A stretch of 64,000 nt of DNA from Gammaproteobacteria bacterium (GCA_965222615.1 CBDCUI010000009.1:256001-320000), one strand, 5' to 3'; numbered from the stretch's first letter, positions 1 through 16,569 are shown. The notes: generated by a model from the letters alone, not told the origin. Program-made: numbers and translations.

Positions 1-642
1 GGTGACTTCGTTTTGTTTGGCCTGTTGTTCAATCGTTTGATCAAGTTCTTTTACACGCGCATCTAATGTTAGTACGTCATGTTGAAGTCCCTGTAGTAAA
101 GAACGAAAGTGTGGCGTTAAGCCATTCTCTCCGTCTTCTAACCAAGTCGGTATTGCAGCGCGTAATCGATGTAACTGTTGGGGTGCGACTAAGCCATATT
201 CACTCACTAAGCCTCGAATCTGATTGGCTTTAGCGGTGCGTTGTTGCACCAAAGTATTACGCACACGATGCAGGGCCTGAATGTCTTGCTGTTCAATACT
301 TTTGATCGTGACAAAGCGCATGTTGGGGCGACTCATGGCTTCGCAAATGGCTTCGGCATCGTTGGCATCATTCTTGTTGCTCTTTACATAAGGCTTTACA
401 AACTGGGGTGCAATCAATTTCACCACATAGCCTCGTTGTTGTAATACACGAGCCCAGTGGTGTGCACCCGAACAGGCCTCCATGCCAATCTCACCACCCG
501 GTTCAACATGCTCCACTAATACCTTAAGCCACTTGCTTCGAGATAAGCGTCGTTTGAATACGCACTTTCCCGTGCGATCCACCCCGTGTAGTTGAAAAAC
601 ATGCTTTGCCAAATCCACACCCATGCGTGTAATCTTGTTCAT
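1..642 (-). CDS. IS110-family DEDD transposase, N-terminal part (runs off window)
   Basis: Same sequence as the 5' part of the 2985-4019 transposase; start codon at 642. Confidence 0.92.
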   Translation of the reverse strand, partial: MNKITRMGVDLAKHVFQLHGVDRTGKCVFKRRLSRSKWLKVLVEHVEPGGEIGMEACSGAHHWARVLQQRGYVVKLIAPQFVKPYVKSNKNDANDAEAICEAMSRPNMRFVTIKSIEQQDIQALHRVRNTLVQQRTAKANQIRGLVSEYGLVAPQQLHRLRAAIPTWLEDGENGLTPHFRSLLQGLQHDVLTLDARVKELDQTIEQQAKQNEVT

Positions 643-734
643 GTATGGTCTCCTTTATTCAAAGTAACTGGTTCTATCGCTTCCAGTATGGGCACATTAC
701 GATGCCGTTTAAAGTTGAGGGAGGCCATACCATT
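1..734 (-). mobile_element. IS110/IS1111-family element, copy 1 (truncated by window start)
   Basis: Appears identical to 3378-4111 (offset 3377), including subterminal IR GAGGGAGGCCATA at 717-729. Confidence 0.92.
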
Positions 735-756
735 GCTATTGGACGAAAGCAGACAT
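735..756. repeat. Right part of 28-bp palindromic repeat (copy A), split by IS1111
   Basis: GCTATTGGACGAAAGCAGACAT, matching GCTATTGGCCGAAAGCGGACAT at 4112-4133. Confidence 0.8.
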
Positions 757-816
757 AATTGAGGACAAATCAGGTTGGAATCAACAAACTACAAACATAA
801 AATGACTGCTTACGAC

Positions 817-2047
817 TGCCGATTCAATTGATCACCGCAACACTTTATCTTAAGTAACAAAAAAGATGGAGTGTGAAGGATGGGCTATCGAACACGCATT
901 TATTATAGCGAAGCACAAAAACAGGTGATGTGGGATCGCTGGCAGCAAGGTGATTCTCTCCACACTATTGCGCGCCTTTTTAATCGTGGGCACTCATCGA
1001 TACGACGGATACTTGCAGAAACAGGTGGCATTCGCCCTCCTCAACGAACACGATCAGGCTTCGCACTGACGTTATCGGAACGCGAAGAAATTTCTCGTGG
1101 ACTCGCACGGAATGTATCTTTGCGATCGATTGCTAAACAACTAAAGCGTTCACCTTCCACCATCAGTCGCGAGATTCAGCGCAATGGCGGCATTGCGACA
1201 TATCGCGCGAATGAAGCGGAACAAGCTGCGTGGGATCGGGCGCGCCGTCCTAAAACGTGTAAACTCGCTAGGAACAAAGACTTGTGTCATGCCGTAGCAA
1301 CCAAGTTGCAATTACATTGGTCGCCGGAGCAGATTGCGGGTTGGTTAAAACGCACCTATCCTAATGATGAGAGTAAGACCGTGTCGCATGAAACGATTTA
1401 TCGCAGTTTGTTCATTCAAGCCCGCGGAACCCTGAAAAAAGAGTTACTTGCGTATCTGCGCACGCAACGGACTTTACGTCAGTCAAAGAAAGCCAGTTTG
1501 AAAAACCAAGGCTTAGGTCAAATTAACCATGCGGTCTCCATTCGACAACGTCCGGCATCGGTGGAAGATCGTGCCGTACCGGGACATTGGGAAGGTGATC
1601 TCATTGCAGGCTCAAACAACAGTTATATTGCCACCTTGGTCGAACGACATACACGCTATGTCATGCTAGCCAAAGTAAAGAATAAAGACACGAAGAGTGT
1701 CATCAATGCACTTATCAAGCAAGCGAAGAAATTGCCGAATGAGCTCTACAAATCGTTAACCTGGGATCGCGGTAAAGAGATGGCCGATCATCAACGCTTT
1801 ACCTTAGCGACCGAAATCAAAGTCTACTTTTGCGATCCACAAAGTCCGTGGCAACGGGGTTCAAATGAAAATACAAATCTACTACTTAGACAGTACTTTC
1901 CAAAAGGAATGGACCTGTCTAACATTCATCAGAATCGATTGAATGCAGTAGCAAGACAATTAAACGAACGACCTAGGAAAACACTAGAATTTGAAACACC
2001 AGCAGAAAAATTTAACCAATGTGTTGCAGCGATCGGTTGAGATCGCA
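817..2047 (+). mobile_element. IS30-family insertion sequence (1231 bp)
   Basis: 27-bp imperfect IRs TGCCGATTCAATTGATCACCGCAACAC and (rc) TGCGATCTCAACCGATCGCTGCAACAC; 2-bp AC duplication at 815-816 and 2048-2049. Confidence 0.92.
880..2040 (+). CDS. IS30-family DDE transposase
   Basis: HTH N-terminus, WSPEQIAG, GHWEGD, TWDRGKEM, PWQRGSNENTN and LNERPRK motifs. Confidence 0.96.
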   Translation: MGYRTRIYYSEAQKQVMWDRWQQGDSLHTIARLFNRGHSSIRRILAETGGIRPPQRTRSGFALTLSEREEISRGLARNVSLRSIAKQLKRSPSTISREIQRNGGIATYRANEAEQAAWDRARRPKTCKLARNKDLCHAVATKLQLHWSPEQIAGWLKRTYPNDESKTVSHETIYRSLFIQARGTLKKELLAYLRTQRTLRQSKKASLKNQGLGQINHAVSIRQRPASVEDRAVPGHWEGDLIAGSNNSYIATLVERHTRYVMLAKVKNKDTKSVINALIKQAKKLPNELYKSLTWDRGKEMADHQRFTLATEIKVYFCDPQSPWQRGSNENTNLLLRQYFPKGMDLSNIHQNRLNAVARQLNERPRKTLEFETPAEKFNQCVAAIG

Positions 2048-2081
2048 ACCCAAAGCGGACATTTCTAACAATCATAAATAC

Positions 2082-2683
2082 ATGACTAAAACGAAAATAA
2101 TTGTATTAAGAATTTTAGCTATACTAGCTATAGTTGAAATACTAATTTTAGTATTCGCTGGATTTCAGCAAATATCGGGCACTAAAGAATTATTTGAAAG
2201 CTTTGAAGGTCCACTTCCACTAATAACAACTGTTTATCTAGTACATAAAAGTGTAGAAGAGGTTAGGCGAGATTCGCTTCGATATAAATATTGGATTCAA
2301 TTTCTGTTTGCTAAACTGGCGGTGTCCATATACTAAAACGAAAATAATTGTATTAAGAATTTTGCTATACTAGCTATAGTTGAAATACTAATTTTAATTC
2401 GCTGGATTTCAGCAAATATCGGGCACTAAAGAATTATTTGAAAGCTTTTCCACTTCCACTAATAACAACTGTTTATCTAGTCACGTATAAATATTGGATT
2501 CTACTGGCAATATTCCCTCTATTTATTTTTGTTAAATCGTTTAGGGAAAAATTTAAATCACGTAATTCATCAAGTCCATTTGTTTCGTTGCTTATTGCAT
2601 TTATTATTATTGGGATACTAATATTTGTAGGAATTATATTTGCAATGTATGCGCCTATTTGGGAATTGTCTAATAAGGCTTAA
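2082..2683 (+). pseudogene. Small membrane-protein gene disrupted by an imperfect tandem duplication (or assembly artefact)
   Basis: About 2085-2241 recurs at about 2332-2481 with small deletions. The joined protein MTKTKIIVLR...PLPLITTVYLV-TYKYW...AMYAPIWEL is hydrophobic and resembles a PilC/GspF membrane segment. Confidence 0.55.
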
Positions 2684-2719
2684 GTGATGATATTTTTATG
2701 ACCGTATATGGCCTCCCTC

Positions 2720-2984
2720 CGTTTGCAAGCAAAATATTCAATGACAAAGTAGAGTCGACTGCACACGTATATTCGGCCTCTATTGATAGCAAGCGTTGAT
2801 GCTGGGCCAGGATGGTGTATTCGCACCTAAGCACCCAATCGCTATTACGTACTCGAAGTACCTGGACATTCACGGGTTACGCTTAGGTCGGTTCGACCGG
2901 TTTGCCATCTAATAAATTACTTTGCAATCGTGGTAGATAATCCTCTTAAGTGTAAGTACATGTAATTTCGTTAATTGTTTTATT
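2720..2984 (-). ncRNA. Predicted IS1111 bridge/seek RNA region
   Basis: Non-coding end 3' of the transposase. On the minus strand it carries target-matching ATGTCC and AATAGCG around a GTAC-TTCGA-GTAC hairpin, and donor-matching ACCAT and ATATAC. Exact RNA ends unknown. Confidence 0.7.
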
Positions 2985-4019
2985 TCACATAAGCGCAAAG
3001 TTCGGATCATATTCACTTTCATCTCGCAACATTGCAAATGCCATACGCACGGTTTTATTCGCCAGTGCGACAGCGGCCACATTCGTATGTTTGGTTTTAG
3101 AAAGATGCGTGACCCACTGACTCAATCGATCCTCTTTATGTTTCGCTTGCGAGACGACAGCCCTTGCTCCGTGAATGAGTAAGGTGCGCAGATAGGCATC
3201 GCCGCGTTTACTGATTTCCAGTAAACGCTCTTTATTGCCTGAACTGTGTTGTCTGGGGGTTAAGCCTAAGGCTGCCGCCATCTGGCGACTGCTCTTGTAT
3301 TGTTTGGCATCGCCTACCGTGGCAATCAATGCTGTGGCCACCATCGGCCCGACCCCTCGTAGCTGTTGTAGACGCTTGGTGACTTCGTTTTGTTTGGCCT
3401 GTTGTTCAATCGTTTGATCAAGTTCTTTTACACGCGCATCTAATGTTAGTACGTCATGTTGAAGTCCCTGTAGTAAAGAACGAAAGTGTGGCGTTAAGCC
3501 ATTCTCTCCGTCTTCTAACCAAGTCGGTATTGCAGCGCGTAATCGATGTAACTGTTGGGGTGCGACTAAGCCATATTCACTCACTAAGCCTCGAATCTGA
3601 TTGGCTTTAGCGGTGCGTTGTTGCACCAAAGTATTACGCACACGATGCAGGGCCTGAATGTCTTGCTGTTCAATACTTTTGATCGTGACAAAGCGCATGT
3701 TGGGGCGACTCATGGCTTCGCAAATGGCTTCGGCATCGTTGGCATCATTCTTGTTGCTCTTTACATAAGGCTTTACAAACTGGGGTGCAATCAATTTCAC
3801 CACATAGCCTCGTTGTTGTAATACACGAGCCCAGTGGTGTGCACCCGAACAGGCCTCCATGCCAATCTCACCACCCGGTTCAACATGCTCCACTAATACC
3901 TTAAGCCACTTGCTTCGAGATAAGCGTCGTTTGAATACGCACTTTCCCGTGCGATCCACCCCGTGTAGTTGAAAAACATGCTTTGCCAAATCCACACCCA
4001 TGCGTGTAATCTTGTTCAT
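2985..4019 (-). CDS. IS110-family DEDD transposase/recombinase
   Basis: GVDLAK, MEACS, KNDANDAEAI, GVGP and GLTPRQHSSG motifs. Confidence 0.96.
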   Translation of the reverse strand: MNKITRMGVDLAKHVFQLHGVDRTGKCVFKRRLSRSKWLKVLVEHVEPGGEIGMEACSGAHHWARVLQQRGYVVKLIAPQFVKPYVKSNKNDANDAEAICEAMSRPNMRFVTIKSIEQQDIQALHRVRNTLVQQRTAKANQIRGLVSEYGLVAPQQLHRLRAAIPTWLEDGENGLTPHFRSLLQGLQHDVLTLDARVKELDQTIEQQAKQNEVTKRLQQLRGVGPMVATALIATVGDAKQYKSSRQMAAALGLTPRQHSSGNKERLLEISKRGDAYLRTLLIHGARAVVSQAKHKEDRLSQWVTHLSKTKHTNVAAVALANKTVRMAFAMLRDESEYDPNFALM

Positions 4020-4235
4020 GTATGGTCTCCTTTATTCAAAGTAACTGGTTCTATCGCTTCCAGTATGGGCACATTACGATGCCGTTTAAAGTTGAGGGAG
4101 GCCATACCATTGCTATTGGCCGAAAGCGGACATCAAGGTTAGCCAATGAAGAGAATAGGGCGCGTTAACTTTTTAATAATAGTTGGGGAGTCATAGATTG
4201 GCCGAGAGGGGATTTATATAGTTCTTTATTTTATA

Positions 4236-4652
4236 ATGTATGAATGGGAATTAATGCTGCTAAAAAAACGTGCCAAAGAACGTGGTCGAATTGCTAGGCA
4301 AGAGCTCTTACTGGCCGACGGTGGCTGCATTAGTGCCGCGGATGCTGCAAAGCAACTGGGAATCACGGAGGTAGAGCTTGAGAGAATCCGTAGTTCTAAT
4401 CAGTTATTGGCTGTTGATGTTGATAGCAAGTTTCAATATCCGATTTGGCAATTCGAGGGAGCAAATTTAGTTCCCGGATTACAAGAAATATTAGAAATAC
4501 TTGGCGATGATGATCCGTGGTCGAATTTCATCTTTTTGTTGGGTCACGACTATGCAGTAGATGGATGTCGTCCAATCGACAAACTTCGTGTAGGTGATAT
4601 TGATTCAGTCAAACGCGCTGCACATACGTACGGTCATCATGGTGCAGTTTAA
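4236..4652 (+). CDS. HTH + Xre/MbcA/ParS-like antitoxin-type protein (copy 1)
   Basis: HTH-like AAKQLGIT, YPIWQF and C-terminal DG.RP...LR.G pattern. The sister copy suggests the true start is ATG 4244 with an extra A in the run at 4262-4268. Confidence 0.6.
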   Translation: MYEWELMLLKKRAKERGRIARQELLLADGGCISAADAAKQLGITEVELERIRSSNQLLAVDVDSKFQYPIWQFEGANLVPGLQEILEILGDDDPWSNFIFLLGHDYAVDGCRPIDKLRVGDIDSVKRAAHTYGHHGAV

Positions 4653-4675
4653 ATAAAGCAAATAATAGGTAATTT

Positions 4676-4858
4676 ATAAACAATTCAATTCAACGCATAC
4701 CTGGAATTGCTGGAAGCAAACCATTGCTCAAGTGTGTATGCGTCCCCACAAAAATAATTGCAGAGCGATTTAAAGCCGGCGAATCAATTAGTGCGCTTGC
4801 AGTGGACTATGGTTGTAGGAACACAGAAATAGAAGAAGCGATTAGATTCGAACTTTAG
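4676..4858 (+). CDS. Small DUF433-like protein (not in ORF track; no ATG, start uncertain)
   Basis: Frame reads ...IPGIAGSKPLLKCVCVPTKIIAERFKAGESISALAVDYGCRNTEIEEAIRFEL*, a DUF433-like pattern conserved in the sister copy. Confidence 0.55.
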   Translation: MNNSIQRIPGIAGSKPLLKCVCVPTKIIAERFKAGESISALAVDYGCRNTEIEEAIRFEL

Positions 4859-4879
4859 TCACAAATCTCCCGAAATAAA

Positions 4880-4992
4880 CCTGAATTCCAGGTACTTACT
4901 TTTACTCCCGAACTTACACTCAAGTACCGAATTTTACTCCTGGGGGACTGATGTTTACTCCCGAAAAGTGCTGGGTATTACTAGGAATTACA
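4880..4992 (-). repeat. Tn7-like transposon end with about four TnsB-type binding repeats
   Basis: rc TGTAATTC followed by repeated (G/T)AGTAAAA...GTACTT-like units. Confidence 0.8.
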
Positions 4993-5037
4993 ATAGTCTC
5001 GAACCGATAAGGTGATTAACCATCTGGTTAATCGTTT

Positions 5038-5065
5038 TCTTAACATAATATATATTATGCGAAGT
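5038..5065 (-). other. dif: dif site (XerC/XerD chromosome dimer resolution site)
   Basis: rc ACTTCGCATAA-TATATA-TTATGTTAAGA, compared with E. coli GGTGCGCATAA-TGTATA-TTATGTTAAAT. Confidence 0.9.
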
Positions 5066-5109
5066 TAAATATGTGGGTGCCTAATAGAATTTGACGTCTC
5101 TTAAACATG

Positions 5110-5215
5110 TGTGATTCTTAGTAAAACCAAGCACTTTTCAGGACTAAAAGTCAGTACTTCAGGAGTAAAACTAAGTACTTGAGTAATTAATAAGACTAAA
5201 ACTAGATACCTGAAT
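5110..5215 (+). repeat. Tn7-like end (tns-distal, dif-facing) with closely spaced TnsB-type sites
   Basis: TAGTAAAACCAAGCACTT, GACTAAAAGTCAGTACTT, GAGTAAAACTAAGTACTT, GACTAAAACTAGATACCT. Confidence 0.85.
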
Positions 5216-5244
5216 TCATGATCTATTTCTAAAGATTTGTGACT

Positions 5245-5427
5245 TTAAAGTTCGAATCTGATGGCTTCTTCGATATAAGAGTCTTTACAGCCGTAATCCA
5301 TAGCCAGCTCAGTAATCGATTCGCCGGCTTTAAATCGCTCTGCAATTATTTTTGTGGGGACGCATACACACTTGAGCAATGGTTTGCTTCCAGCAATTCC
5401 AGGTATGCGTTGAATTGAATTGTTTAT
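5245..5427 (-). CDS. Small DUF433-like protein (copy 2; not in ORF track)
   Basis: C-terminus AGESITELAMDYGCKDSYIEEAIRFEL*, frame preserved despite DNA divergence from copy 1. Confidence 0.55.
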   Translation of the reverse strand: MNNSIQRIPGIAGSKPLLKCVCVPTKIIAERFKAGESITELAMDYGCKDSYIEEAIRFEL

Positions 5428-5450
5428 AAATTACCTATTATTTGCTTTAT

Positions 5451-5858
5451 TTAAACTGCACCATGATGACCGTACGTATGTGCAGCGCGTTTGACTGAAT
5501 CAATATCACCTACACGAAGTTTGTCGATTGGACGACATCCATCTACTGCATAGTCGTGACCCAACAAAAAGATGAAATTCGACCACGGATCATCATCGCC
5601 AAGTATTTCTAATATTTCTTGTAATCCGGGAACTAAATTTGCTCCCTCGAATTGCCAAATCGGATATTGAAACTTGCTATCAACATCAACAGCCAATAAC
5701 TGATTAGAACTACGGATTCTCTCAAGCTCTACCTCCGTGATTCCCAGTTGCTTTGCAGCATCTGCGGCATTAACGCAGCCACCGTCGACTAGCAAAAGTT
5801 CTTGTCTGGCTATTCGACCACGTTCTTTAACACGCTTTTCTGCAGCACTAATTCCCAT
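5451..5858 (-). CDS. HTH + Xre/MbcA/ParS-like antitoxin-type protein (copy 2)
   Basis: Same protein as 4236-4652 except for the N-terminal part. Confidence 0.65.
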   Translation of the reverse strand: MGISAAEKRVKERGRIARQELLLVDGGCVNAADAAKQLGITEVELERIRSSNQLLAVDVDSKFQYPIWQFEGANLVPGLQEILEILGDDDPWSNFIFLLGHDYAVDGCRPIDKLRVGDIDSVKRAAHTYGHHGAV

Positions 5859-6055
5859 CTCAGTATTATAAAGAATTAATCAAGTCCCCTCTTCGTTGTA
5901 TGTATCACTCCCCAACTATTGCACAAAAGATGGGGAGCGAATCATACATATTAACTATCTGTTTTATAATAATATTTTCAATTATTTTGTTGAAAAAATA
6001 ACATAACTAGAGTAAATTTCTCACCAACTTTTTGAGTAATAGATAAATAGTTGGT

Positions 6056-6706
6056 ATGTTAGAAACATCAACATCCGAAGTGAAAAACTTCAATCACCCA
6101 GCTCCTGGGTCGACCATAAAAGTCGAACCAATTCGAACTGTTCAAGCGATTCACAAAATTAAAACCATGCTTGAACCTAATCCGCGTAACTATTGTTTAT
6201 TCGTTCTTGGGATTAATACCGCATTTCGAGCTTCTGAATTACTTTCAATAAAGATTGGACAGGTTAAATATTTAAATCCAGGAGATCGGTTAGAAGTTAA
6301 ACAACCAAAAACGAAAAAGTATCGATCCGTGACAATCAATCAGTCAGCTCATGATGCGATACGTCGATTAATTATAGAAAAAGATATAGAAGCTCTCAAA
6401 AAAAGAAACTTGAATATCTCTGATGACGATGCATTTCTATTTACTGGCCAACGCGGATCGTCAGCTCTTAAGGTTTCAACTTTAAACAATATGGTTAAGG
6501 ATTGGTGTAGAAAAGTTAATCTGAAAGGTAATTTTGGTAGTCACACTCTACGAAAAACCTGGGGATTTATGCAGCGCAAGAAGCAAGACACCCCTATTCC
6601 TTTATTGATGCAAGCATTAGGTCATGCAACTCAAAGACAGACTATGGAATATTTATGCATTCAAGAAAAAGAAATTGAGAATGTTTATACAGCAATGGAA
6701 CTATAG
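6056..6706 (+). CDS. Small tyrosine recombinase/integrase (catalytic domain only)
   Basis: NTAFRASE (R), KTKK (K), HTLRK (HxxR), LGH (H) and TMEY (Y) all present. Confidence 0.9.
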   Translation: MLETSTSEVKNFNHPAPGSTIKVEPIRTVQAIHKIKTMLEPNPRNYCLFVLGINTAFRASELLSIKIGQVKYLNPGDRLEVKQPKTKKYRSVTINQSAHDAIRRLIIEKDIEALKKRNLNISDDDAFLFTGQRGSSALKVSTLNNMVKDWCRKVNLKGNFGSHTLRKTWGFMQRKKQDTPIPLLMQALGHATQRQTMEYLCIQEKEIENVYTAMEL

Positions 6707-6827
6707 TAGTGGCTAGGATTTATACAACCTTTCAAAGCTATATATTATTCTATGATGTATCCATATACTTTATATAGAATAATGTTACGTTTACTCCTAA
6801 TGGTGGTGCGCATAATGAGGGTTAAAA

Positions 6828-7832
6828 ATGGCACACGGTAGATTGCTCAGACAACTCATTCGTGCTGGTGTTAATGCGCCCGGAGAAGAATTTCGTGAGG
6901 TAGCCGAAAAGGTTATTCGCGAAGAACGTGAAAAAAAACATCATTTACTAGCTAATGATCTAGAACGGATTCTGTACGGCGAAAGTAATGATGAAGCACG
7001 TACCCTCTTACCACTATCGCTACCTGAAGTGCCAAAGGATCGAGAGCGACATATACCACTTTTAGAAATTCGCGAACCAGTTCGTTCTTTCGCAGACATT
7101 GTTCTTACCAAAGACAACCGTGAGATACTCGAACATGTTTTGCAAGAACAGGGACGGCGTGATGTGCTTGGCTCTTATGGTTTGAAACCTGCCAATCGTT
7201 TACTATTCTGCGGGCCACCTGGATGTGGAAAGACCTTAGCTGCAGAAGTATTAGCGACCGAGCTTGGTTTACCACTACTCTTAGTGCGCTTTGATGCGGT
7301 TGTGTCATCCTATCTTGGTGAAACTGCAGCAAATTTACGAAAAGTGTTTCAGTACCTTGAAACTGGACGTTATGTTGTTTTGTTTGATGAGTTTGATGCG
7401 ATAGCAAAAGATCGTGCGGACGCATCTGAGCATGGTGAATTACGAAGGGTTGTAAATGCATATCTGCAAATGATGGATAGCTATCGTGGCAATTGTTTGT
7501 TACTTGCCGCATCAAACCATGAAGGTTTACTTGATAAAGCCCTTTGGCGACGATTTGATGAAGTACTTTTCTATCGTCGCCCAACAACAGAAGAAATTAT
7601 TGATTTGGTTGCTGTAAAACTTCGAGGTATTCGCTATAACTTTGAAACAGAAAACGAACCGACTATCGCTAACTTCAATGGGATGGCGCACGCTGACATT
7701 GAGCGTGTATTGATCCGCGCAATTAAACATATGATCTTATCGGGTCGTGAATTTTTAAGCACTGACCACATCGCACTTGCCCTAGAACGAGAACGGGAAA
7801 GACGATCTGTCGCTGAACATAAGTCGATTTAA
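6828..7832 (+). CDS. AAA+ ATPase, IetA-like
   Basis: Walker A GPPGCGKT, Walker B VLFDEFD, LDKALWRRFD; directly upstream of an S8 protease. Confidence 0.85.
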   Translation: MAHGRLLRQLIRAGVNAPGEEFREVAEKVIREEREKKHHLLANDLERILYGESNDEARTLLPLSLPEVPKDRERHIPLLEIREPVRSFADIVLTKDNREILEHVLQEQGRRDVLGSYGLKPANRLLFCGPPGCGKTLAAEVLATELGLPLLLVRFDAVVSSYLGETAANLRKVFQYLETGRYVVLFDEFDAIAKDRADASEHGELRRVVNAYLQMMDSYRGNCLLLAASNHEGLLDKALWRRFDEVLFYRRPTTEEIIDLVAVKLRGIRYNFETENEPTIANFNGMAHADIERVLIRAIKHMILSGREFLSTDHIALALERERERRSVAEHKSI

Positions 7833-7837
7833 CAGTA

Positions 7838-10147
7838 ATGGTAGATCGACTACCGCATCTAAGAATGGCTCGAGCAGAGCCGATTAACGAACGACGCCGA
7901 CGACCAGGATTTGGACCTGGGCGGCCTAAAGACCCTGGTCGTCACGCCCAAGAGTTAAAAGAAAACCTTGATGAGCATAAAGACTCACCAGAAAACGAAT
8001 TAGCTGGTTTCGATCCGCGCCACTTACTCAAACTCGAAATCGAAGGCATTGCTGGTGATGAGCTTTCAAACATTCCAGAATTCAGTGTCGTTACTGAAGA
8101 AGGGAGTAACGTAACTGTGTTGTTTGCTACGGAAAGCGCATTGAAAGAATTTCGTAGTCGATTAGAACAACTTGAAGCAGGTAATCGTGCGACACGTGAG
8201 CAAATATTATTTGCAGTTAAGGGATTTGATTATATTACTGCGGATGATCGCCGAGGCCCCCGGTTAAGCACGGATGGAACGCCAAACAAAGAGCTTTTCA
8301 TACTGGATGTTGAACTTTGGGCGCTTGATCTTCGTAATGAACGAGATGCGATGATCGAATATTTCGTTGAGTTTTGTCATCAATCTAATATTGACATTCG
8401 TGATCAAGTTAATCATCCATCGCTTGTTTTGTATCGTGTAGAAACATCTTCTGATGGTCTAAACAAATTACTTAACATGCGTGATGTAAGGCGTGTTGAC
8501 TTACCCCCTCAATATGAATTTGAGATGGAGTTACTTGATGCGACGGTGAACTCATTACCAGAAATTAAACCACCACCCGACAACGCACCCACCATAGCAA
8601 TATTAGATTCAGGAATAGCCAGTGCTCACCCACTTTTAGAGCATGCTGTTGGAGACGCTCAATCATTTGTTGACGAAGATCCCATCGACCTTGTTGGCCA
8701 CGGTACTACAGTAGCAGGTCATGCTTTACTTGGTGATGTAGCAACTGTCGCTCAAAGCGCAACGCATACCGCTGAACTTCGAATACTCAGCGGTAAAATT
8801 GGTCAAGGCCGAGATGATGTAACTTTGATTGAAAATCGCATTATTGAGGCGGTGCAATATTTTAAGGAACACTATAATTGTAGAGTGTTCAACCTATCTA
8901 TCGGTGTTTATGCTCGCCCTTACCTAGGCGGACACGTTGATAGACTTGCAGCTACTATTGATTGGTTATCTCGTGAGTATCAAGTGCTGTTCATTGTCTC
9001 GACGGGTAATATCCATTCAAGTGTGCAAGGGCCAGCCAATTGGCGAGAAGGTTACCCACGCTATTTGTTGGAAGATGAATTTCGCTTGTTAGATCCTGCT
9101 CCAGCATTGAACGCAATAACAGTAGGCGCATTAGCTAATTATGAGGTCGCCCGAATGGCTGCACGTAATCCTGACGATCCTTCATATCAACCTATTGCGC
9201 ATCGTGATCAACCATCACCCTTTACGTTGTGTGGTCCAGGTCCAAATGATGCAATAAAGCCAGATTTTGCCGACTACGGTGGTAATCGTTATATTGATTC
9301 ACGCCAAGCACCGCGACCATTAGCAGGAAATGAATTAGGTGAGCTCGGATTAAGTAATAAATTTGCCACTGGAAACTTGTATAGAGTTTCAGTGGGCACA
9401 AGTTTTGCTGCACCTCGTGTTGCACACTGTGCTGCACATATATTACGTCAGTATCCCGATGCGTCACCGTCGCTTCTTAGGGCGTTGTTGGCTGCTCATT
9501 CAACTGTGCCTACTTCCACAGCGGATTTGGATCTAGACAAATCAGAGGTACTACGTCTTGTTGGATACGGTAAGCCCAACAAAGAATATTCACTGTATTC
9601 CGAAAACAATCGCGTTACAATTTTGGCCGAAGAGACACTTGCTCCTAATGAACATCACTTCTACCAACTTCCTATGCCGGATGATCTTTTTAAGTCTCCT
9701 GCTCGTCGACCTCGACGAATTACTGTTGCTCTCGCACATACGCCACGAGTTCGACGAACGCGTTTAAAATACCGGGAAAGTGAGATGTCTTTTCGAATAA
9801 TTAAAGCCGAGAGCCTTGAATCCGTGACTCAAGCTTATCGGAGGCTGCGGAAAGATGAGAAAGAAGATCTAATTCCGGAAAGTGATTTCACACCAGGCCC
9901 TACGCTGCGTGAAGGTGGTTCATTGCAGTGTGCTACACGCATACTTGGTCAAGTGGATGAGCGATACCGAAGAAAACCATACTTCTTAGTTGTAACCAAT
10001 AATGTACCAGATTGGGTTAGCTCAATTGATTCGGAGCCTTATTCGCTTGTAATCGTTATTGAAGATCAATCAGACGTTGAAGTAAATCTATATACGCAAA
10101 TCCAATTAGAGCTACAAGAGCGTGTGCGCACACAGGCTCGGAATTAA
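7838..10147 (+). CDS. Subtilisin-like S8 serine protease, IetS-like
   Basis: Catalytic triad ILDSG / GHGT / GTSFAAP; no signal peptide; 5 bp after the ATPase. Confidence 0.88.
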   Translation: MVDRLPHLRMARAEPINERRRRPGFGPGRPKDPGRHAQELKENLDEHKDSPENELAGFDPRHLLKLEIEGIAGDELSNIPEFSVVTEEGSNVTVLFATESALKEFRSRLEQLEAGNRATREQILFAVKGFDYITADDRRGPRLSTDGTPNKELFILDVELWALDLRNERDAMIEYFVEFCHQSNIDIRDQVNHPSLVLYRVETSSDGLNKLLNMRDVRRVDLPPQYEFEMELLDATVNSLPEIKPPPDNAPTIAILDSGIASAHPLLEHAVGDAQSFVDEDPIDLVGHGTTVAGHALLGDVATVAQSATHTAELRILSGKIGQGRDDVTLIENRIIEAVQYFKEHYNCRVFNLSIGVYARPYLGGHVDRLAATIDWLSREYQVLFIVSTGNIHSSVQGPANWREGYPRYLLEDEFRLLDPAPALNAITVGALANYEVARMAARNPDDPSYQPIAHRDQPSPFTLCGPGPNDAIKPDFADYGGNRYIDSRQAPRPLAGNELGELGLSNKFATGNLYRVSVGTSFAAPRVAHCAAHILRQYPDASPSLLRALLAAHSTVPTSTADLDLDKSEVLRLVGYGKPNKEYSLYSENNRVTILAEETLAPNEHHFYQLPMPDDLFKSPARRPRRITVALAHTPRVRRTRLKYRESEMSFRIIKAESLESVTQAYRRLRKDEKEDLIPESDFTPGPTLREGGSLQCATRILGQVDERYRRKPYFLVVTNNVPDWVSSIDSEPYSLVIVIEDQSDVEVNLYTQIQLELQERVRTQARN

Positions 10148-10287
10148 AGTTTCGAATTTCTGCGTGCAAACTCTATGATGAAATCGACAAGATATGCAGT
10201 ATCGTTTTTAACCATACCACACGTATTTTCACCCCCAACTTTTATTAAAAAGTTAACGCGCCCTATTCTCTTCATTGGCTAACCTTG

Positions 10288-10567
10288 ATGTCCGCTTTTG
10301 GCTGTGGTCTCAATAGGTCGATGCAACACTTTGAAATAGAGTGAAAAAAGGCTGCAAAAGCTAAGAGAAATGCAATTACATCAACATCTTAAGAGTAGAT
10401 CAATAAAAGATGGCTCGAAGCAAGTAATAATGCAGTATTTAATGTAACCGGTTCATCCAAAAACAACTCAACACTAAATGGTCATCCGTTTGAGTCAACC
10501 TCTTTATTACTAAAAGTTTAGCAAGGTGTTGCATTGACCGATTGAATCGGCAGTCGTTAGCGGACAT
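10288..10567. repeat. 28-bp palindromic repeat (copy D), split at its centre by a MITE
   Basis: ATGTCCGCTTTTG-GC (10288-10302) plus CGTTAGCGGACAT (10555-10567). Confidence 0.82.
10303..10552 (-). mobile_element. IS30-like non-autonomous element (MITE, 250 bp)
   Basis: IRs TGTGGTCTCAATAGGTCGATGCAACAC and (rc) TGCCGATTCAATCGGTCAATGCAACAC resemble the IS30 ends at 817 and 2047; no transposase; flanks GC and GT. Confidence 0.78.
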
Positions 10568-10651
10568 TATATGGGTATTAAGATCATTACCCAACAATTA
10601 GGCAAAAGTTAATAGATAATTATTCCTGAATTTCTTTGTACGACCCTCATA

Positions 10652-12238
10652 TTAGAATGAACCATGCACGTGCATAGATCTTTCGACTATTTCATCCCTG
10701 CCTTTTTGTTTTACATCGCTCAAATTAACTAGTATTGGTAGGAATGTTAAGTGTTCGTATACGATCTTATTATTAGTGATGTCAATAAAAGATAGCGTTT
10801 TTGCAAAATTGAGTTTATTTAGATCGCGCTCCAAGTTATCTGAATGCACCCATATTTGTTCACTCAAAGAAACTAACCATACAAATTGTAAATAAAGTTC
10901 TGCAAGGTATTGCCACAACCATTCTTTGGTAAACCGATAGACAAAGGGTCGATTATTAAAATGCATGCATTTACTATCTTCAGACCATAATAATTTTCCT
11001 GGACCGTTTTCTGACCAATCCATCCATACCGATGAATCCAAATAATGTGATGCGTAGTCCTCTACATTAATTATTTGCCCTTGCGGAAATACACATTTTT
11101 GCCAAAGCGAATATGCAGTACACCATAATGACGTAGCTTTAGATAATTTGACACTACAAAACTTATTACAGTGAAACATAGTCCCTGACTTACGACTTGA
11201 ATAATCAATATGCACTTTCAATTCCTGATCAAACGACTTTATGAAGGATGTTATAAATTGAGTGAGGTGGTTATAAGTCCGTAATTTGGGGAATCTTTCT
11301 ATCAAATTTTTACCGTTTAGGTATTCTTTAGTAAGAGTTCTATCACGTAGAATCTCCTTGTAATTTTTTACGTCATACTTATCGAAACAACCCACATCAC
11401 ATGAAAGTGGATAAAATTCCCTAGTAGGGATATTTATTTTTGATTTCAAGTACGTGGTTTTTGAAGTTCTAACATTTCCAACGTTAACTAAACAAGTCTT
11501 CACCCAATCCGGACCAGCTGAAAAATGATGTAAATAGGCTAAATTTGCATAGTCGACACAACCCTTCAGCCAAATCCGAACAGAATTGGAAGGGTTATTG
11601 AGTTCCTCGGCTTTGTTAATCCAATATCTATATTCTTCTATTATTTTCTTGCGTTCTAAAATATCTGTGCCGACTCTATATCTATCTATATCCCAAAAAT
11701 TTGTTCCACACTTAATGTTAGGGCAACTATATATTTGTAAGAAAGCATTCGTAACTTTATATTTATGTAAATAGCTCCCACATTTTATACAGATAGTAGT
11801 TAATGGAGCGTGATGAATTGGGCAGTGACTCCATGCGAGAATTTGATGGAAAACAAGATGTGTGCCCCGCTGGACACATTGAGGACAAATGCGTAAATGT
11901 TTTGATAAATTTAATGGATTGTTAATAGAGATTGTTGATTTATAGGCACAGATGTTTTTGATATTCGAGGAATAGTATTCTCCACACGATGCCTCTAACC
12001 AATCACTCTTCCAACCAGTCAGCTGCAGAATTCGTTTTACGTTAAAATTACGAACGTCGTCTGGATAGGTGCTTATATCGCTAATGTAATCCGACGCATA
12101 ACTTTTTCGAGTTCCAAAGTTTCTTTTAAAGTCTGACCAATCAAAATGATTTAATATTGCTAGCTTCGCTGTAATAGACCACAGAGTCTCACCTATTGGA
12201 TTCCATTCTTGAGCACCAATCAGGCTACGGCTATTCAT
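10652..12238 (-). CDS. tniQ: TniQ/TnsD-family target selector
   Basis: P.GETLWS start, Zn-finger pattern CPQC...HQ...CPIH...CIKC...CPNIKC; follows tnsC; long C-terminal extension. Confidence 0.8.
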   Translation of the reverse strand: MNSRSLIGAQEWNPIGETLWSITAKLAILNHFDWSDFKRNFGTRKSYASDYISDISTYPDDVRNFNVKRILQLTGWKSDWLEASCGEYYSSNIKNICAYKSTISINNPLNLSKHLRICPQCVQRGTHLVFHQILAWSHCPIHHAPLTTICIKCGSYLHKYKVTNAFLQIYSCPNIKCGTNFWDIDRYRVGTDILERKKIIEEYRYWINKAEELNNPSNSVRIWLKGCVDYANLAYLHHFSAGPDWVKTCLVNVGNVRTSKTTYLKSKINIPTREFYPLSCDVGCFDKYDVKNYKEILRDRTLTKEYLNGKNLIERFPKLRTYNHLTQFITSFIKSFDQELKVHIDYSSRKSGTMFHCNKFCSVKLSKATSLWCTAYSLWQKCVFPQGQIINVEDYASHYLDSSVWMDWSENGPGKLLWSEDSKCMHFNNRPFVYRFTKEWLWQYLAELYLQFVWLVSLSEQIWVHSDNLERDLNKLNFAKTLSFIDITNNKIVYEHLTFLPILVNLSDVKQKGRDEIVERSMHVHGSF

Positions 12239-12250
12239 TATTTGATAATG

Positions 12251-13240
12251 TTAATGTGCTGTACGTACAACTAGATCTTTAATCTGTTCAATTGCTACAT
12301 GGCTGATAGCATCTTCGATGAATCTCTTTTCCAATTGAAGTGACATATCATCTTGTTCTGGCAATGCTTTTAGTATCCAACGTAATAACGCTGAGATCGG
12401 TTGTAGAGGAATTTCATCAAATTTTGCAATATGTTCAGCTCTGCACATCTCCATAAGAGAATCCCAAATTAATTCTGCCGAATCTAATAAACGCCAGCCT
12501 GCGTCATAAGCTTGTGGAGCAAAATACCTTGTATAGGAGCATCCCGACCCAGGAGGATATTCTGAATGTGAATCGAGCATTTTTATTATGCGTCTAAAAT
12601 CTCTTTTGTCGGCAATGCCTTCAAATCGATGTGTCGCAGTCATGAATCGCCCAAGCAATTGTTGCTTTCCTGAACTTCTGAAATTGTTTTTTATATCTAT
12701 TAATTCTGGTTGACCGACTAGCACTGTCACTAAACGCACGTCTTTCATTTTCAATGAATTATGAAGATCCATAAGATATTCATATTGTGTTAAATCTAAC
12801 CATTCTGCTTCATCAATAAATAAAAGATAACGATGTTCACGCGTTTGAAAGGCACGCTCAACCATAAAATCAATACAACGTCTGCGCTTTATTCTTGCGG
12901 CTTTAGAATCAATTAATGAATAATTTAGTGCTTGCAGCATCTCATCAAAGAAGCGTAATTCAGTAGTACTACTTTGTGATGGTTGCCACATGCTCAACAT
13001 CGTAGTTGGAATTGGGCTTCCTAAAACTTCTTCACAATTATCAACAATGTAACGAATTGCTTGAGTCTTCCCTACCCTTTGATTTCCCCACACTAAACCG
13101 CCTGGTAAAAGTTTATCCAACCAAACTAGAATTGCATTTACGAATTCTTCTAATGGACGCGTCGGAATAATTGCTGCATCACGCAATATTGGGTGATCGT
13201 CAATAAACTCTACTCTCTCGTTATTATGCTTTCTTTCCAT
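12251..13240 (-). CDS. tnsC: TnsC/TniB-like AAA+ transposition regulator
   Basis: Walker A GNQRVGKT, Walker B LLFIDEAE, VLVGQPEL, QLLGRF. Confidence 0.85.
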   Translation of the reverse strand: MERKHNNERVEFIDDHPILRDAAIIPTRPLEEFVNAILVWLDKLLPGGLVWGNQRVGKTQAIRYIVDNCEEVLGSPIPTTMLSMWQPSQSSTTELRFFDEMLQALNYSLIDSKAARIKRRRCIDFMVERAFQTREHRYLLFIDEAEWLDLTQYEYLMDLHNSLKMKDVRLVTVLVGQPELIDIKNNFRSSGKQQLLGRFMTATHRFEGIADKRDFRRIIKMLDSHSEYPPGSGCSYTRYFAPQAYDAGWRLLDSAELIWDSLMEMCRAEHIAKFDEIPLQPISALLRWILKALPEQDDMSLQLEKRFIEDAISHVAIEQIKDLVVRTAH

Positions 13241-13252
13241 TGTGTTTATATG

Positions 13253-15148
13253 CTATCGAGTTGTATGTACTTTATTTAATGAAACCCAGTTCTCGTGTTT
13301 CGTAGGTATATTCTGTTTTTCTTGTTTTAGTTTGTTGAATTCTGTTGAGGAGTGCTGCAAATGCAGAAGTCGGTTTCTATCTTTTCTATATTTATTGGCG
13401 CGTTTATTGAGAAAGTTCATGTAGTCTGATAACGGTGTGAGCGTGTCAGAATATAAACGCTTTTGCTTTATAAGTTTTAAAATTGCACATCTTATTTTTA
13501 AGCTATGTGGATAGATCATCCAGCGTTCTTCTGCTTCAAGACGACCTATACATTTGCCATTTTCTAAAAACAGTAACCCTGTGCGTATGTCTTTAATGTT
13601 TACGCGAAATGTTGCACGTTGATTTGTATATTGAGTATTAATTCTTAAGAAGTCACTGGAATATCTCACTCCTTTGAATTTTATATAGGGTCGGTGCTGA
13701 TGCTCACGACTTGACCGTATCGTGACAAAATAATTTCTTTCAAATAAGGGAATATTATCCGGTTGTTGATTTGTTAGATATCGTGGTATATCCCCTGCTC
13801 GATCAATTCGATAACGGATGTATTCAAGTGGCGTGCGACCATTCAGACTGGTGTGAGGGCTCGCATTATAGTTTGCGATAGCGACATCTGTAACGAGTTC
13901 AAGGTTTTCATACTCGATTAAGAGTTTTTTTGCTTGCTGTGTTGCGTTTCTTCTTCTCGGATCTTGTGGATTTGAACCAGTTGTATTTGGCCATCTATGT
14001 AAAGATGCTTCTTCAAACGTCCTCATGAATCTTTCAATTATTGAATTAGATCGAGGTCGTCGAGCTTTATTGCTGATGATCTCTATTGCACCCGTTGAGA
14101 TAATTCTGTTTTGTAGCCAACTAGAAATATTTGCATATGCATTGTCTAGTTGGACAACATCAAATGATCTCCAAGCGCATTTATCAATAACACCAGATGG
14201 CAATCCCGCATTTCGCTTGTAATGAATAACGCCGTTGGTATTTTCTTTTGGTAACCACGGTGTGAATGAACTTGCTATGCATTCTAGCAAGTCTTCCATA
14301 GTGTAATTTTCCGATAAGCTTAAGCTATAACCAAGAATCGCCCTGCTCGACACATCAATTAGTACGAGCAACCAAATTCTAGAAAGCGGTAGTTCTTGTT
14401 CTTCACCAAATTGGTCTTTGATGCGGATGATTAGTTCAGCATCAAGGCGATGTGCATCAAACTGCACCTTATTATATGGTTTTAGTATTGGGACAGCGTT
14501 ATTTAAGCAGATATGATTTGTAGTGATCGATTGGATGTTATCGCCAAACTCAGCAATCGCTCCTTCAATAAAATTCTCTTTTTGAACTTTTCTGCAATAG
14601 TTACGAATTACCTCTCTACCACCGTCACGATTACTGAAGGGATAATCCAATTCGGTATCAATGCCTTTTGCTGTACAATTATCTTTAAAAGCTTCCCAAA
14701 TGATTTTAGTATTTCTACCGCGCACATAGCACTCATCTATTTTTTTCTTTCCTAATGCCCATCCTTTAAGGCTATCTTCAAGATTTGGATATTGACGTAG
14801 AAATTGACTAAATAATCCAGCATGCCCAGTTAACTTGTTGGTTGTACGCTCATACTTTTTAAATCGAAAATTTGGGATACAAGCTGTATACCCCCACGGA
14901 TCTCCATCTGGCGATACGTCAAAGGCACGTTTAAGAATTCGTATTAACTCTGATTTAGATAATCCGCATTTATAAAGTATTTTTTCTATTGACAAATCGG
15001 ATGATAAATATAGGTCAACAGCACGTTTTCTACGATTAAATTTCGCTTTTTTAGCAGCAGAAAATGAACTTACATCAACCGGAAGCCAGTTGTTTGGCTC
15101 TAAGTCTTTTGATAGATGATTATTTTCAAGACATAGTTTCCTGATCAT
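13253..15148 (-). CDS. tnsB: TnsB-like DDE transposase
   Basis: QFDAH, IDVSSRAILG, QLDNA, IIERF, YNASPH motifs. Confidence 0.87.
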   Translation of the reverse strand: MIRKLCLENNHLSKDLEPNNWLPVDVSSFSAAKKAKFNRRKRAVDLYLSSDLSIEKILYKCGLSKSELIRILKRAFDVSPDGDPWGYTACIPNFRFKKYERTTNKLTGHAGLFSQFLRQYPNLEDSLKGWALGKKKIDECYVRGRNTKIIWEAFKDNCTAKGIDTELDYPFSNRDGGREVIRNYCRKVQKENFIEGAIAEFGDNIQSITTNHICLNNAVPILKPYNKVQFDAHRLDAELIIRIKDQFGEEQELPLSRIWLLVLIDVSSRAILGYSLSLSENYTMEDLLECIASSFTPWLPKENTNGVIHYKRNAGLPSGVIDKCAWRSFDVVQLDNAYANISSWLQNRIISTGAIEIISNKARRPRSNSIIERFMRTFEEASLHRWPNTTGSNPQDPRRRNATQQAKKLLIEYENLELVTDVAIANYNASPHTSLNGRTPLEYIRYRIDRAGDIPRYLTNQQPDNIPLFERNYFVTIRSSREHQHRPYIKFKGVRYSSDFLRINTQYTNQRATFRVNIKDIRTGLLFLENGKCIGRLEAEERWMIYPHSLKIRCAILKLIKQKRLYSDTLTPLSDYMNFLNKRANKYRKDRNRLLHLQHSSTEFNKLKQEKQNIPTKHENWVSLNKVHTTR

Positions 15149-15887
15149 GAGAACTGGATTTTATTATTGTTTTTATTGTTAATGGGTATGTGTCTAAATC
15201 AGATGAAAGTACCCCTTTGTGTAAATGTTTTGCTAAACAAGCAATAATATGCTGAGATTCAGACGCGCAGAGATTGATGATTTTCTCAAGGGTTATTTCT
15301 TTGTAGTTCTTACAAAGTTCCAAAACCTCTCTTTCAAGCAAAGGATCTGGGCTCTTATAGGCGTTTCTTGCATGTGAGAGCAGCTCACGCCAATTAAAAA
15401 TTAGAATTTTGTCTTTCTCTAAATTTTTATTAGTTATAAATTCACATCTGTAGCCATTTTCACTTCCCCACCTCTCAATTAAGTTCCAATCTTTGGGTCT
15501 AGTTGTTCCAGAATTGTCCTTCCTAAGAGAGGCTTCATTGAGAACTTCATAGAATACTTCTTGTTTTGACTTAAAGGTGAAACTTAAATCAAATGTGTAG
15601 TGAGGTTTGTTTCTTAGAGGCGCTTCTATCCGCAGTGGTCGCTCGCATAATTTTGTTATTGAAGGTTCCGCTTCTGCTTTTATGATTGCATCAGCAATTA
15701 GATCTCCGGCGACACAGACTTCTCTCATACCAGCCTTGATACTAAAAATGCGATGATATCTGCAGTTAATTTGTTTTTTTAGAGGCAATAAATGCGGGCC
15801 TCTAAACATTTTAGCTTCTATAAAACGTGCTGAATTGAAGTTCTCAGTGGATAAGTTGTTCTTATTATTTGCAACTACATCAGTCAT
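15126..15887 (-). CDS. tnsA: TnsA-like endonuclease
   Basis: First gene of the operon, overlaps tnsB; ERPL...YTFD...FYEV nuclease-like pattern and C-terminal winged-helix-like segment. Confidence 0.72.
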   Translation of the reverse strand: MTDVVANNKNNLSTENFNSARFIEAKMFRGPHLLPLKKQINCRYHRIFSIKAGMREVCVAGDLIADAIIKAEAEPSITKLCERPLRIEAPLRNKPHYTFDLSFTFKSKQEVFYEVLNEASLRKDNSGTTRPKDWNLIERWGSENGYRCEFITNKNLEKDKILIFNWRELLSHARNAYKSPDPLLEREVLELCKNYKEITLEKIINLCASESQHIIACLAKHLHKGVLSSDLDTYPLTIKTIIKSSSHDQETMS

Positions 15888-16032
15888 AAATTTGTAAACT
15901 AATAAAGATGACTGTTCTAAATTAATAAATAATTACTATCTCAATCAACATAAAATTGTCTTGTAATATCAAGATTTTGATCTGTTATGTTTCTTAACTA
16001 ATTATGTTAGCCGTGTATAGCATTGTGAACAC

Positions 16033-16047
16033 ACACTATATGTAGTG
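16033..16047. promoter_or_regulatory. NrdR-box-like palindrome in the tnsA/XRE divergent promoter region
   Basis: ACACTATATGTAGTG versus NrdR consensus acaCwAtATaTwGtg; single copy only. Confidence 0.4.
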
Positions 16048-16565: not shown

Positions 16566-16569
16566 AAAA

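Follow-up and report, generated by a model that had tools for sequence, protein, structure and literature searches.

A 216-residue tyrosine recombinase, an IetAS pair and 30-bp sites in the cargo region of a Tn7-like transposon: a candidate self-encoded cassette

In this article, we focus on a 4.3-kb segment found in the cargo region of a Tn7-like transposon, within a 64,000-nucleotide stretch of DNA from a Gammaproteobacteria bacterium (GCA_965222615.1 CBDCUI010000009.1:256001-320000), which we will call the window. This segment carries the gene of a small tyrosine recombinase followed by the two genes of an IetAS-type pair, and it is bounded by two short palindromic sites. We give a probability of roughly three in four to its being a self-encoded site-specific recombination cassette, inserted into, or excised from, a short target site within the cargo of the transposon.

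The recombinase gene (6056-6706, + strand) encodes a protein of 216 aa made of the catalytic domain only (PF00589, E 1.3e-18, 67.8 bits for a cut-off of 27.1). It is followed on the same strand by the gene of an IetA-type AAA+ ATPase (6828-7832; PADLOC IetA, 2.6e-93) and, 5 bp further, by that of an IetS-type S8 protease (7838-10147; PADLOC IetS, 1.1e-197; Peptidase_S8, 5.8e-34), the two genes forming the adjacent pair by which IetAS is recognized. These matches confirm what had been claimed from the DNA alone in an original prediction, namely that only a tyrosine recombinase with intact catalytic residues and an ATPase-protease pair lie between the junctions. The matches to the NCBIfam equivalogs stay below their cut-offs (IteA, 230 vs 510 bits; the S8 partner, 147 vs 900), and the pair is therefore a divergent member; IetAS is known as an anti-phage system, a role that this pair would presumably share. 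Its G+C content is 43-46%, vs 33-38% for the transposon core. Elsewhere, none of 29 loci with an IetA homolog (found in 28 other genomes when 400 of the class were sampled, and each taken with 1.5 kb of flank; one of them, L149, comes from a genome flagged as unpublished and is used in this count only) carries the recombinase (tblastn, E<=1e-3) or a site matching the matrix described below.

The left junction, site A (5908-5937, + strand), reads CTCCCCAACTATT-GCAC-AAAAGATGGGGAG, and the right junction, site B (10231-10260, + strand), reads ACCCCCAACTTTT-ATTA-AAAAGTTAACGCG, both exactly as first quoted. An unoccupied, or excised, version of the site lies nearby on the - strand (4161-4190), in the remnant of a related transposon end. 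Its reverse complement is CTCCCCAACTATT-ATTA-AAAAGTTAACGCG, that is, an A-type left arm, ATTA and a B-type right arm. The early description of this copy as the left arm of the first junction joined to the rest of the second was borne out by a three-way alignment, in which the remnant tracks the left flank of A up to ...CCCCAACTATT and switches to B at ATTA, continuing along the right flank of B to ...GTCCGCTTT. The DNA present in the right copy and absent from the remnant is then 4323 bp long (5921-10243, + strand), and the empty site is composed of the outer halves of the two junctions, as attL and attR would leave it; a second such case (L005 vs L019) is detailed below. The two copies share inverted repeats of 594 nt (4264-4857 and 5246-5839, 94% identity) and 70 nt (4119-4188 and 10233-10302, 97% identity). 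The GAT variant in the right arm of site A is also found in two other loci, L008 and L011. A third site, B' (10587-10616, + strand), reads TTACCCAACAATT-AGGC-AAAAGTTAATAGA and lies 36 bp from the stop codon of tniQ, beyond a miniature inverted-repeat transposable element (MITE). From tniQ to the right end of the transposon, the cargo region is thus ordered B', MITE, B, IetS, IetA, recombinase, A, an open reading frame (ORF) of 135 aa and the transposon end; A, B and B' make up a small array of sites, of which the window element forms one cassette.

These sites are more than chance would provide. With up to 2 mismatches, the motif of the original prediction has 6 matches in the window, where 0.25 are expected and none of 100 shuffles reaches 6. 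We also built a half-site matrix of 13 positions from the arms of 36 recombinase-proximal sites, which included A from the window and left out B, B' and the remnant site. This matrix matches the window at exactly four places, 4161, 5908, 10231 and 10587, corresponding to the remnant site (half-site scores 18.1 and 10.4), A, B and B', while five shuffles gave 0, 0, 0, 0 and 1 matches. On the whole genome (3,097,016 bp) it gives 7 matches, 4 of them within this 6.4-kb locus, vs 2, 2 and 3 in three shuffled genomes; within the genome, such sites are confined to this locus.

One could invoke an accidental deletion or insertion between short direct repeats (CCCCAACT), in which the recombinase would play no part, and an 8-bp identity is indeed common to junctions A and B. 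Slippage on CCCCAACT nonetheless predicts ...CCCCAACTTTTATTA, whereas the remnant reads ...CCCCAACTATTATTA. Moreover, both junctions, the remnant site and B' score as sites that were found independently beside homologous genes, and the same architecture recurs in other loci. We consider such an accident extremely improbable.

The recombinase family and the unit upstream of its gene

The residues R58, K85, H163, R166, H190 and Y199, aligned to the catalytic residues of XerA, are invariant in 36 homologs, and the R-K-H-R-H/W-Y set together with the PF00589 match places the protein in the tyrosine recombinase superfamily. The Pfam match spans residues 42-203 of the 216, the matches to family models start at residue 27-42, and the alignments with XerH, XerA and XerC/D begin at residue 100-190 of those proteins. 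In the predicted structure (predicted local distance difference test, pLDDT, 81), about 28 N-terminal residues without predicted secondary structure precede the catalytic domain, the first 20 having low confidence (block pLDDT 44 and 60), and the nearest solved folds are XerH, XerA, IntI and Cre. The N-terminal core-binding domain is absent, which sets the protein apart from the 'simple' tyrosine recombinases, composed of a core-binding and a catalytic domain in the passages of PMC8138268 that define them. The residues N13, P15, G18, I21, V23 and E24 are invariant across the 36 homologs, and the N-terminal stretch (residues 13-27) might stand in for the missing domain.

The protein belongs to none of the named groups against which it was scored. 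It reaches 21.9 bits with the IntI model TIGR02249 (cut-off 265); among the NCBIfam Xer equivalogs, with XerS also considered, it reaches at best 60.9 bits with XerA (cut-off 220), then 48 with XerC (335) and 41.5 with XerD (330); and it reaches 23.4 bits for FimB/FimE (cut-off 222), with weak matches to NF007371 and NF007370. The family is large, since 2467 of 2595 candidates are homologs at E<=1e-10. Nearly all of the 120 homologs listed are 194-244 aa long (two are of 172 and 178 aa), and those of the 120 that bear a name are called only "integrase" or "tyrosine-type recombinase/integrase". A limited search of open-access literature text yielded no description of this recombinase family or of its site. 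The gene is single-copy in its own genome and present in 2 of the 56 genomes of the host's family, its own included; the other copy (L007) has an internal stop.

We compared loci carrying such genes, 5 from reference genomes, 80 from metagenomes (the best 80 of 465) and 49 from viral contigs. A 30-bp palindrome with a 13-4-13 layout, of which site A is the window's example and which we call site 1, precedes the gene, at no more than 330 bp from the start of the match, in 70 of the 105 loci that extend far enough upstream, vs 7 of 441 control windows taken 2-4 kb away. The search proposed at the outset, for homologous recombinases with the same flanks and different cargo, has thus been successful, as the cargo differs from one locus to the other. 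Site 1 mostly lies 140-200 bp from the start of the recombinase match, and the 35 loci without it are mostly distant relatives on viral contigs or variants with a centre of 5-6 nt. The outer arm bases co-vary by clade (CTCCCCAAC, CTCATTAAC, CCCACTAAC, CTGACTAAC, CTCATCAAC and AATCCCAAC).

About 112 bp downstream of site 1 comes site 2, whose two 13-bp arms are separated by 13 nt. In the window it reads CTCACCAACTTTT-(13 nt)-AATAGTTGGTATG (6020-6058, + strand), with a right arm that extends over the ATG of the recombinase gene. Its position is conserved in relatives and its arms co-vary with the recombinase clade, so that site 2 reveals the type of arm that the enzyme of each clade recognizes. 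A promoter-like TTGAAA-17-TAAATT, a match to the consensus, lies between the two sites (5990-6018, + strand), and relatives such as L002 have TTGCTT-17-TATAAT at the equivalent place. A scan of 5800-10400 gave 13 promoter matches vs 10.1 expected, and the call therefore rests on this position and on the relatives. In all-against-all blastn, the homology of most pairs of loci is limited to about 0.8 kb, between site 1 and the stop codon. For pairs less than 97% identical (185 in all), the starting point of the alignment falls no more than 12 bp from site 1 in both loci in 46 cases, inside the unit in 134 and further left in 5, which makes site 1 the left edge of the conserved unit and everything to its left context. 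A conserved site just after the stop codon of the recombinase gene, which could have accounted for the change of cargo at that point, was found in none of 21 loci. Across a large family, site 1, the promoter-like stretch, site 2 and the gene thus make up one conserved unit, about 0.8 kb long.

The enzyme could alternatively be a DNA invertase of the FimB/FimE kind, which would flip the promoter segment of about 84 bp between site 1 and site 2, or the whole of A-B, and so switch IetAS or the 135-aa gene, the presence and absence of the 4.3-kb segment being unrelated to its normal job. The size of the enzyme and its weak matches to NF007371 and NF007370 would suit this, as would two loci, L028 and L029, where two full sites with reverse-complementary spacers, 92-93 bp apart, flank a promoter-like stretch. 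In the clade of the window, site 2 has however a centre of 13 nt instead of 4, which is not the reverse complement of that of site 1. When 65 inter-site segments were compared both ways, none was reversed above noise (the top reverse score was 19, vs forward scores of up to 84; in one locus they were 12 vs 11), and the remnant site is the product of a deletion or an insertion, not of an inversion. An invertase thus appears very improbable as the explanation of the window locus, and this orientation test led us to reject a flip switch for its clade, though not for the type of L028 and L029. The two pairs lie at 6362-6514 in L028 and 5082-5233 in L029, and the spacers listed for them are TCTT/AAGA and GCTT/AAGC. 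In L029 the gene-proximal site is directly upstream of the recombinase and GajA genes, and in L028 about 130 bp, including an element like site 2, separate it from the gene. Judging from this layout, each pair looks like an invertible promoter that could switch a defence operon.

The neighbours of the family recombinases were scanned with Pfam and PADLOC (117 ORFs from 12 loci and 136 ORFs from 49 loci). GajA (Gabija) directly follows the recombinase gene in L026 (4.5e-212) and L029 (1.5e-274), with Dsr2 further on in the latter. PDC-S06 was found in L017 and L069, PDC-S02 in L030, L043 and L044, ThsB (Thoeris) in L010, SduA (Shedu) in L071, a type I restriction subunit in L050 and a NucC-like nuclease in L011. 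In two loci the cargo lies between two full sites, a SIR2-STAND gene in L034 and RelE/HTH (helix-turn-helix) and M78 genes in L054. All that we draw from these scans is that the family cargo differs among loci and is often defence-related, with no claim of enrichment. Two candidates were set aside along the way. A cassette in L014 proved to be a tandem duplication, with two identical sites 237 bp apart and 15 bp of flank included, and a gene of 223/234 aa shared by L054 and L057, on different sides of the recombinase gene, was not used, there being no sites around the L054 copy. In L035, two recombinase genes of the family (4632-5397 and 9815-10582) point outward from a 4.4-kb segment bounded by their sites, which holds genes for a XerC-like integrase, XisI, GNAT and others.

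Hybrid junctions, site arrays and the proposed reaction

The layout proposed for the window can be seen in a clade 62-66% identical to its enzyme (L017-L025), because the arms of the element and those of the target differ there. The site 2 arms of this clade are CTTAAG/GTTAA. In six of its loci (L018, L019, L021, L022, L024 and L025), site 1 is a hybrid, CTCCCCAACTATT-ACAC-AAAAGTTAAGAAT, with a gene-side arm of the clade's own type and a far arm of the CCCCAAC type, while the site of L017 is not a hybrid, its two arms matching the type of its clade. Of the 4 hybrid elements with more than 1 kb of downstream DNA, 3 carry the reciprocal hybrid, AATCTTAACTTTT-NNNN-...GTTGGCG, downstream of the recombinase and its cargo. 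In L019 it lies at 1829, 1.6 kb downstream, and encloses the recombinase and a 166-aa ORF. In L025 there are two, at 5745 and 8856 (4.5 and 7.6 kb downstream), enclosing the recombinase and cargo. In L027, which continues L022/L023, it lies at 1301, about 1.3 kb downstream, and encloses the recombinase and a 212-aa HEPN protein. In L018, no reciprocal hybrid was found in 5 kb of downstream DNA. The gene-proximal spacers are always ACAC-like (ACAC, ATAC, ACGC or ACAT, and GCAC in the window), and those of the far junctions are CCGT, TCGT, GATT and GCAT. The non-identical central spacers that had been noticed in the window thus recur in a sister clade.

L005 provides the second, independent empty site. 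At 8757 on the reverse strand, the site CTCCCCGACTTTT-CCGT-AAATCTTGACGTT combines the arm type of the L019 left junction with the spacer and arm of the L019 right junction, that is, it carries the spacer of the distal junction, as the window remnant does. It adjoins a 3.35-kb block whose counterpart, after the far junction of L019, shares 97.9% identity with it. Beyond the site the two loci have different DNA, and they are therefore no simple isogenic pair. The block carries an amine oxidase gene and a metallo-beta-lactamase-fold gene but no recombinase, and it ends at family sites in both L005 and L019. L002, L019 and L005 all have three site alleles in one order, with the spacers CCGT, GCCG and GACA, and differ in what lies between these sites, which suggests, as read from the arrays, that contents are exchanged between arrays at sites with like spacers.

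How such a cassette might move can be outlined as follows. The recombinase would bind the 13-bp arms, with YYAACTWTT as their core, and strand exchange would take place at the edge of the central TT-NNNN-AA, the switch in the window falling after the A at 5918 and before the spacer. Partner sites would not need to match in their central 4 nt. Either the exchange would be complete, with a heteroduplex centre that is tolerated and then resolved by replication, or a single pair of strands would be exchanged before replication. Precedents for both routes exist, in Tn916/CTnDOT and in integrons and the CTX phage. In either case, the gene-side junction would keep the spacer of the element (GCAC, ACAC-like in relatives) and the far junction that of the target (ATTA, as in the empty site). 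Excision would yield a circle carrying the site ACCCCCAACTTTT-GCAC-AAAAGATGGGGAG. From its position, site 2 is probably an autoregulatory operator, through which the enzyme would repress both its gene and IetAS, which has the same orientation. Carriage of the cassette between genomes would then fall to the transposon. The data fit an insertion into the window copy and an excision from the remnant alike.

Several points weigh against a self-encoded cassette. No circle junction, excised allele or inversion was seen; in particular, the contigs of three public runs (one study) aligned to 5250-11200 contain no joint across 5921-10243 and no circle junction, an absence that speaks neither way, as contigs drop rare forms. 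The crossover position rests on one base (A at 5918 vs T at 10241), in copies that differ by 3-6%. The compared loci come from metagenome-assembled genomes (MAGs) and metagenomes, and some duplicate one another. Only 11 of 78 non-duplicate loci have at least 2 anchored sites within 10 kb, where shuffled sequence gave one match in 834 kb; the other 67 have fewer, and since most loci have one clear site, the two-junction integrated state is not demonstrated for most members. The left (far) arm of site 1 is near-constant across loci and could belong to the unit as well as to a conserved target. The statistic on site 1 is partly circular, the matrix having been trained on gene-adjacent sites, whereas the distal, hybrid and genome-wide results are free of this circularity. 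Finally, with the inverted full-site pairs of L028 and L029, the family also includes probable switches.

Some of these points would suit another role for the enzyme. The recombinase and site 1 could form a resolution or maintenance system, of the kind of Cre/loxP of P1 or of plasmid dimer resolution, which arrived with captured plasmid DNA. The segment would then not be regularly mobile, B would be a pseudo-site, and the remnant would stem from a single accidental deletion. Genes for plasmid RepA and ParA do lie beside the unit in L046 and L057, where a resolution role would suffice, and the 67 loci with fewer than two clear sites and the near-constant left arm of site 1 go in the same direction. 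Against this stand the reciprocal hybrids, which bracket the recombinase and cargo in three further elements, and the second pair of empty and occupied sites in L005 and L019. The 3.35-kb block would also be hard to accommodate, as it is free of recombinase and yet ends at sites in two contexts, and the same goes for B and B', which score as family sites in a genome otherwise at background. We find a resolution system unlikely here, and we favor a cassette moved by its own enzyme.

The host transposon and neighbouring DNA

The original prediction placed the segment inside a Tn7-like transposon, which stands, the element being complete (5110-16733, - strand). What it called the sister transposon is a right-end remnant and no second whole element, since the genome has a single TnsB. 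The complete element carries tniQ (10652-12238; Pfam TniQ, 2.5e-5, 25.4 bits for a cut-off of 27), a tnsC-like gene (12251-13240; AAA_22, 1e-11; TniB, 1e-4, 22.1 bits for a cut-off of 22.4), a tnsB-like gene (13253-15148; Pfam rve_3, 6.4e-5), a 253-aa ORF without family match in the position of tnsA (15126-15887) and an HTH gene (16170-16565). Its termini are TGTGATTCTTAGTAAAACC at 5110 and, as reverse complement from 16733, TGTAGTTCCTAGTAATACC, with four repeats of about 20 nt inside the right end (5119-5213) and a 5-bp target duplication, ACATG, at 5105-5109 and 16734-16738. With TnsB-TnsC-TniQ, TGT termini, internal repeats and the 5-bp duplication, the element qualifies by its sequence as a Tn7-like transposon, on Pfam matches that are weak but concordant.

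The remnant (about 4119-4992, - strand) shares the 94-97% inverted repeats with the right element, has its terminus, TGTAATTCC as reverse complement, ending at 4992, and was severed on its far side by an IS110-family insertion (transposase at 2985-4019). Between the right end of the complete element and site A lies the 135-aa ORF (5451-5858, -), whose counterpart in the remnant is a 138-aa ORF (4236-4652), 95% identical. It has no family match at E<=0.001, only noise-level ones at E of about 0.1, and in 56 genomes of the order its relatives were found in its own genome only, in two copies. By eye, the C-terminal part of these proteins may resemble antitoxin-type domains. In the 20 kb to the left of the window, a listing of ORFs, without annotation, contained nothing transposon-like.

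The MITE between B and B' (10288-10573) is IS30-end-like, its inverted ends matching those that flank an IS30-family gene (880-2040), and the depth of contigs indicates that it is multi-copy. The remnant keeps its first bases as well, just past the site, where IS110 interrupts it; as both copies share these bases, the insertion of the MITE is older than their divergence. The window also contains the IS30-family element itself (880-2040), along with MITE-like derivatives of IS30 ends. Right after the IS30-family gene, about 245 bp are directly duplicated (2085-2500), and several blocks within this duplication are 97-100% identical. There are two IS110-family copies (1-642 and 2985-4019), which share 300 identical nt (1-300 vs 3378-3677), and one of them sits in the MITE end of the remnant.

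A gap of 117 bp (4993-5109) separates the complete element from the remnant, and their right ends face each other across it. A perfect 16-bp palindrome, CATAATATATATTATG, occupies the centre of this gap (5044-5059), 59 and 58 bp from the two termini, and would fit a symmetric attachment site usable from both sides. No tRNA was found in 1-20000. The string CTTAACATAATATA(T/C)ATTATGCG at 5039-5061, which includes the palindrome, is identical at 22 of 23 bases in a Woeseiaceae MAG (L004, 9989-10011), where it marks the exact point at which a recombinase homolog is truncated (match from residue 70). This 23-nt string may be the end or the target of another element.

Comparison with known recombination systems

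The system of the window works like an integrative cassette, and its nearest analogues are integrons, Xer/dif modules, the Tn6022 pair and Cre/loxP. As in integrons, a recombinase gene adjoins a primary site, and cassettes bounded by short sites form arrays. Integrons also recombine non-identical sites, by single-strand exchange followed by replication, and their attC sites are imperfect hairpins in which RYYYAAC and GTTRRRY lie tens of nt apart. The protein of the window lacks, by contrast, the N-terminal domain, and its sites are 30-bp duplex-type palindromes instead of attC hairpins of 60-140 nt, with 12 nt between AAC and GTT, which does not correspond to attC. Moreover, the recombinase gene of the window element is inside the mobile cassette. 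The cassettes of integrons often carry defence genes, according to part of a recent preprint (bioRxiv 10.1101/2024.07.02.601686).

In the pdif/dif modules of Acinetobacter plasmids, passages of two articles describe discrete modules with short two-arm sites in varied contexts (PMC12907356, PMC11705084). These use the host XerC/XerD on 11-6-11 sites, whereas here a dedicated enzyme of 216 aa travels along, with a 13-4-13 layout and the YYAACTWTT core. Closer in context is Tn6022, for which a section of PMC11014353 reports a XerC-like recombinase and a hybrid dif-like site within Tn7-like elements, proposed to diversify cargo. Its enzyme is a full-length XerC homolog acting with the host XerD, unlike the enzyme of the window, which is catalytic-domain-only and has its own palindrome. 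With Cre/loxP, the element shares a palindrome with 13-bp arms shortly upstream of the recombinase gene, no evident accessory arm sites and a fold among the nearest. Cre, however, also binds DNA through a second domain at its N-terminus and requires its 8-bp spacers to match, while the centre here is of 4 variable nt and heterology is apparently tolerated.

FimB/FimE are alike in size and in having no separate core-binding domain, and some clades of the family have a true inverted pair of sites, but no inversion was seen in the clade of the window, where the documented event is an insertion or a deletion. Junctions with different central sequences are a feature of Tn916/CTnDOT, and integration by a simple, arm-less tyrosine recombinase is described for Brujita in parts of PMC8138268. 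The enzymes of Brujita and of Tn916/CTnDOT have core-binding (and arm-binding) domains and about 300-400 aa, and no kinship in sequence closer than the superfamily was found between them and our enzyme. TnsF and Tsy, as presented in a portion of PMC10293859, also differ from the recombinase of the window.

The empty site inside the window serves as an internal control, which shows how a defence system can find its place in Tn7-like cargo through a nested 4.3-kb element with its own enzyme, and the comparison turns one locus into a family, characterized by its 30-bp site, its predicted operator, an arm code specific to each clade and hybrid junctions that mark the strand exchange. If the enzyme works as we infer, this would give a partial explanation for the rapid turnover of defence genes on mobile elements, and the enzyme, with 216 aa and a 30-bp site, would also be of interest as a very small recombinase that, unlike Cre, tolerates spacers that differ. 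Beyond this, we propose tentatively, and at somewhat less than an even chance, that bacteria have, in addition to integrons and Xer/dif, a third general cassette system, made of this family of catalytic-domain-only recombinases (about 200-217 aa) and of their lox-like sites of 30 bp. In such a system the enzyme could be encoded by the cassette itself, half-matching targets would be used without matching centres, arrays of sites with distinct spacers would be built and their contents swapped between replicons, and anti-phage genes would be moved among transposons, plasmids and chromosomes across several phyla. If this is true, the 0.8-kb unit of enzyme and site would be among the smallest self-contained site-specific recombination systems known.

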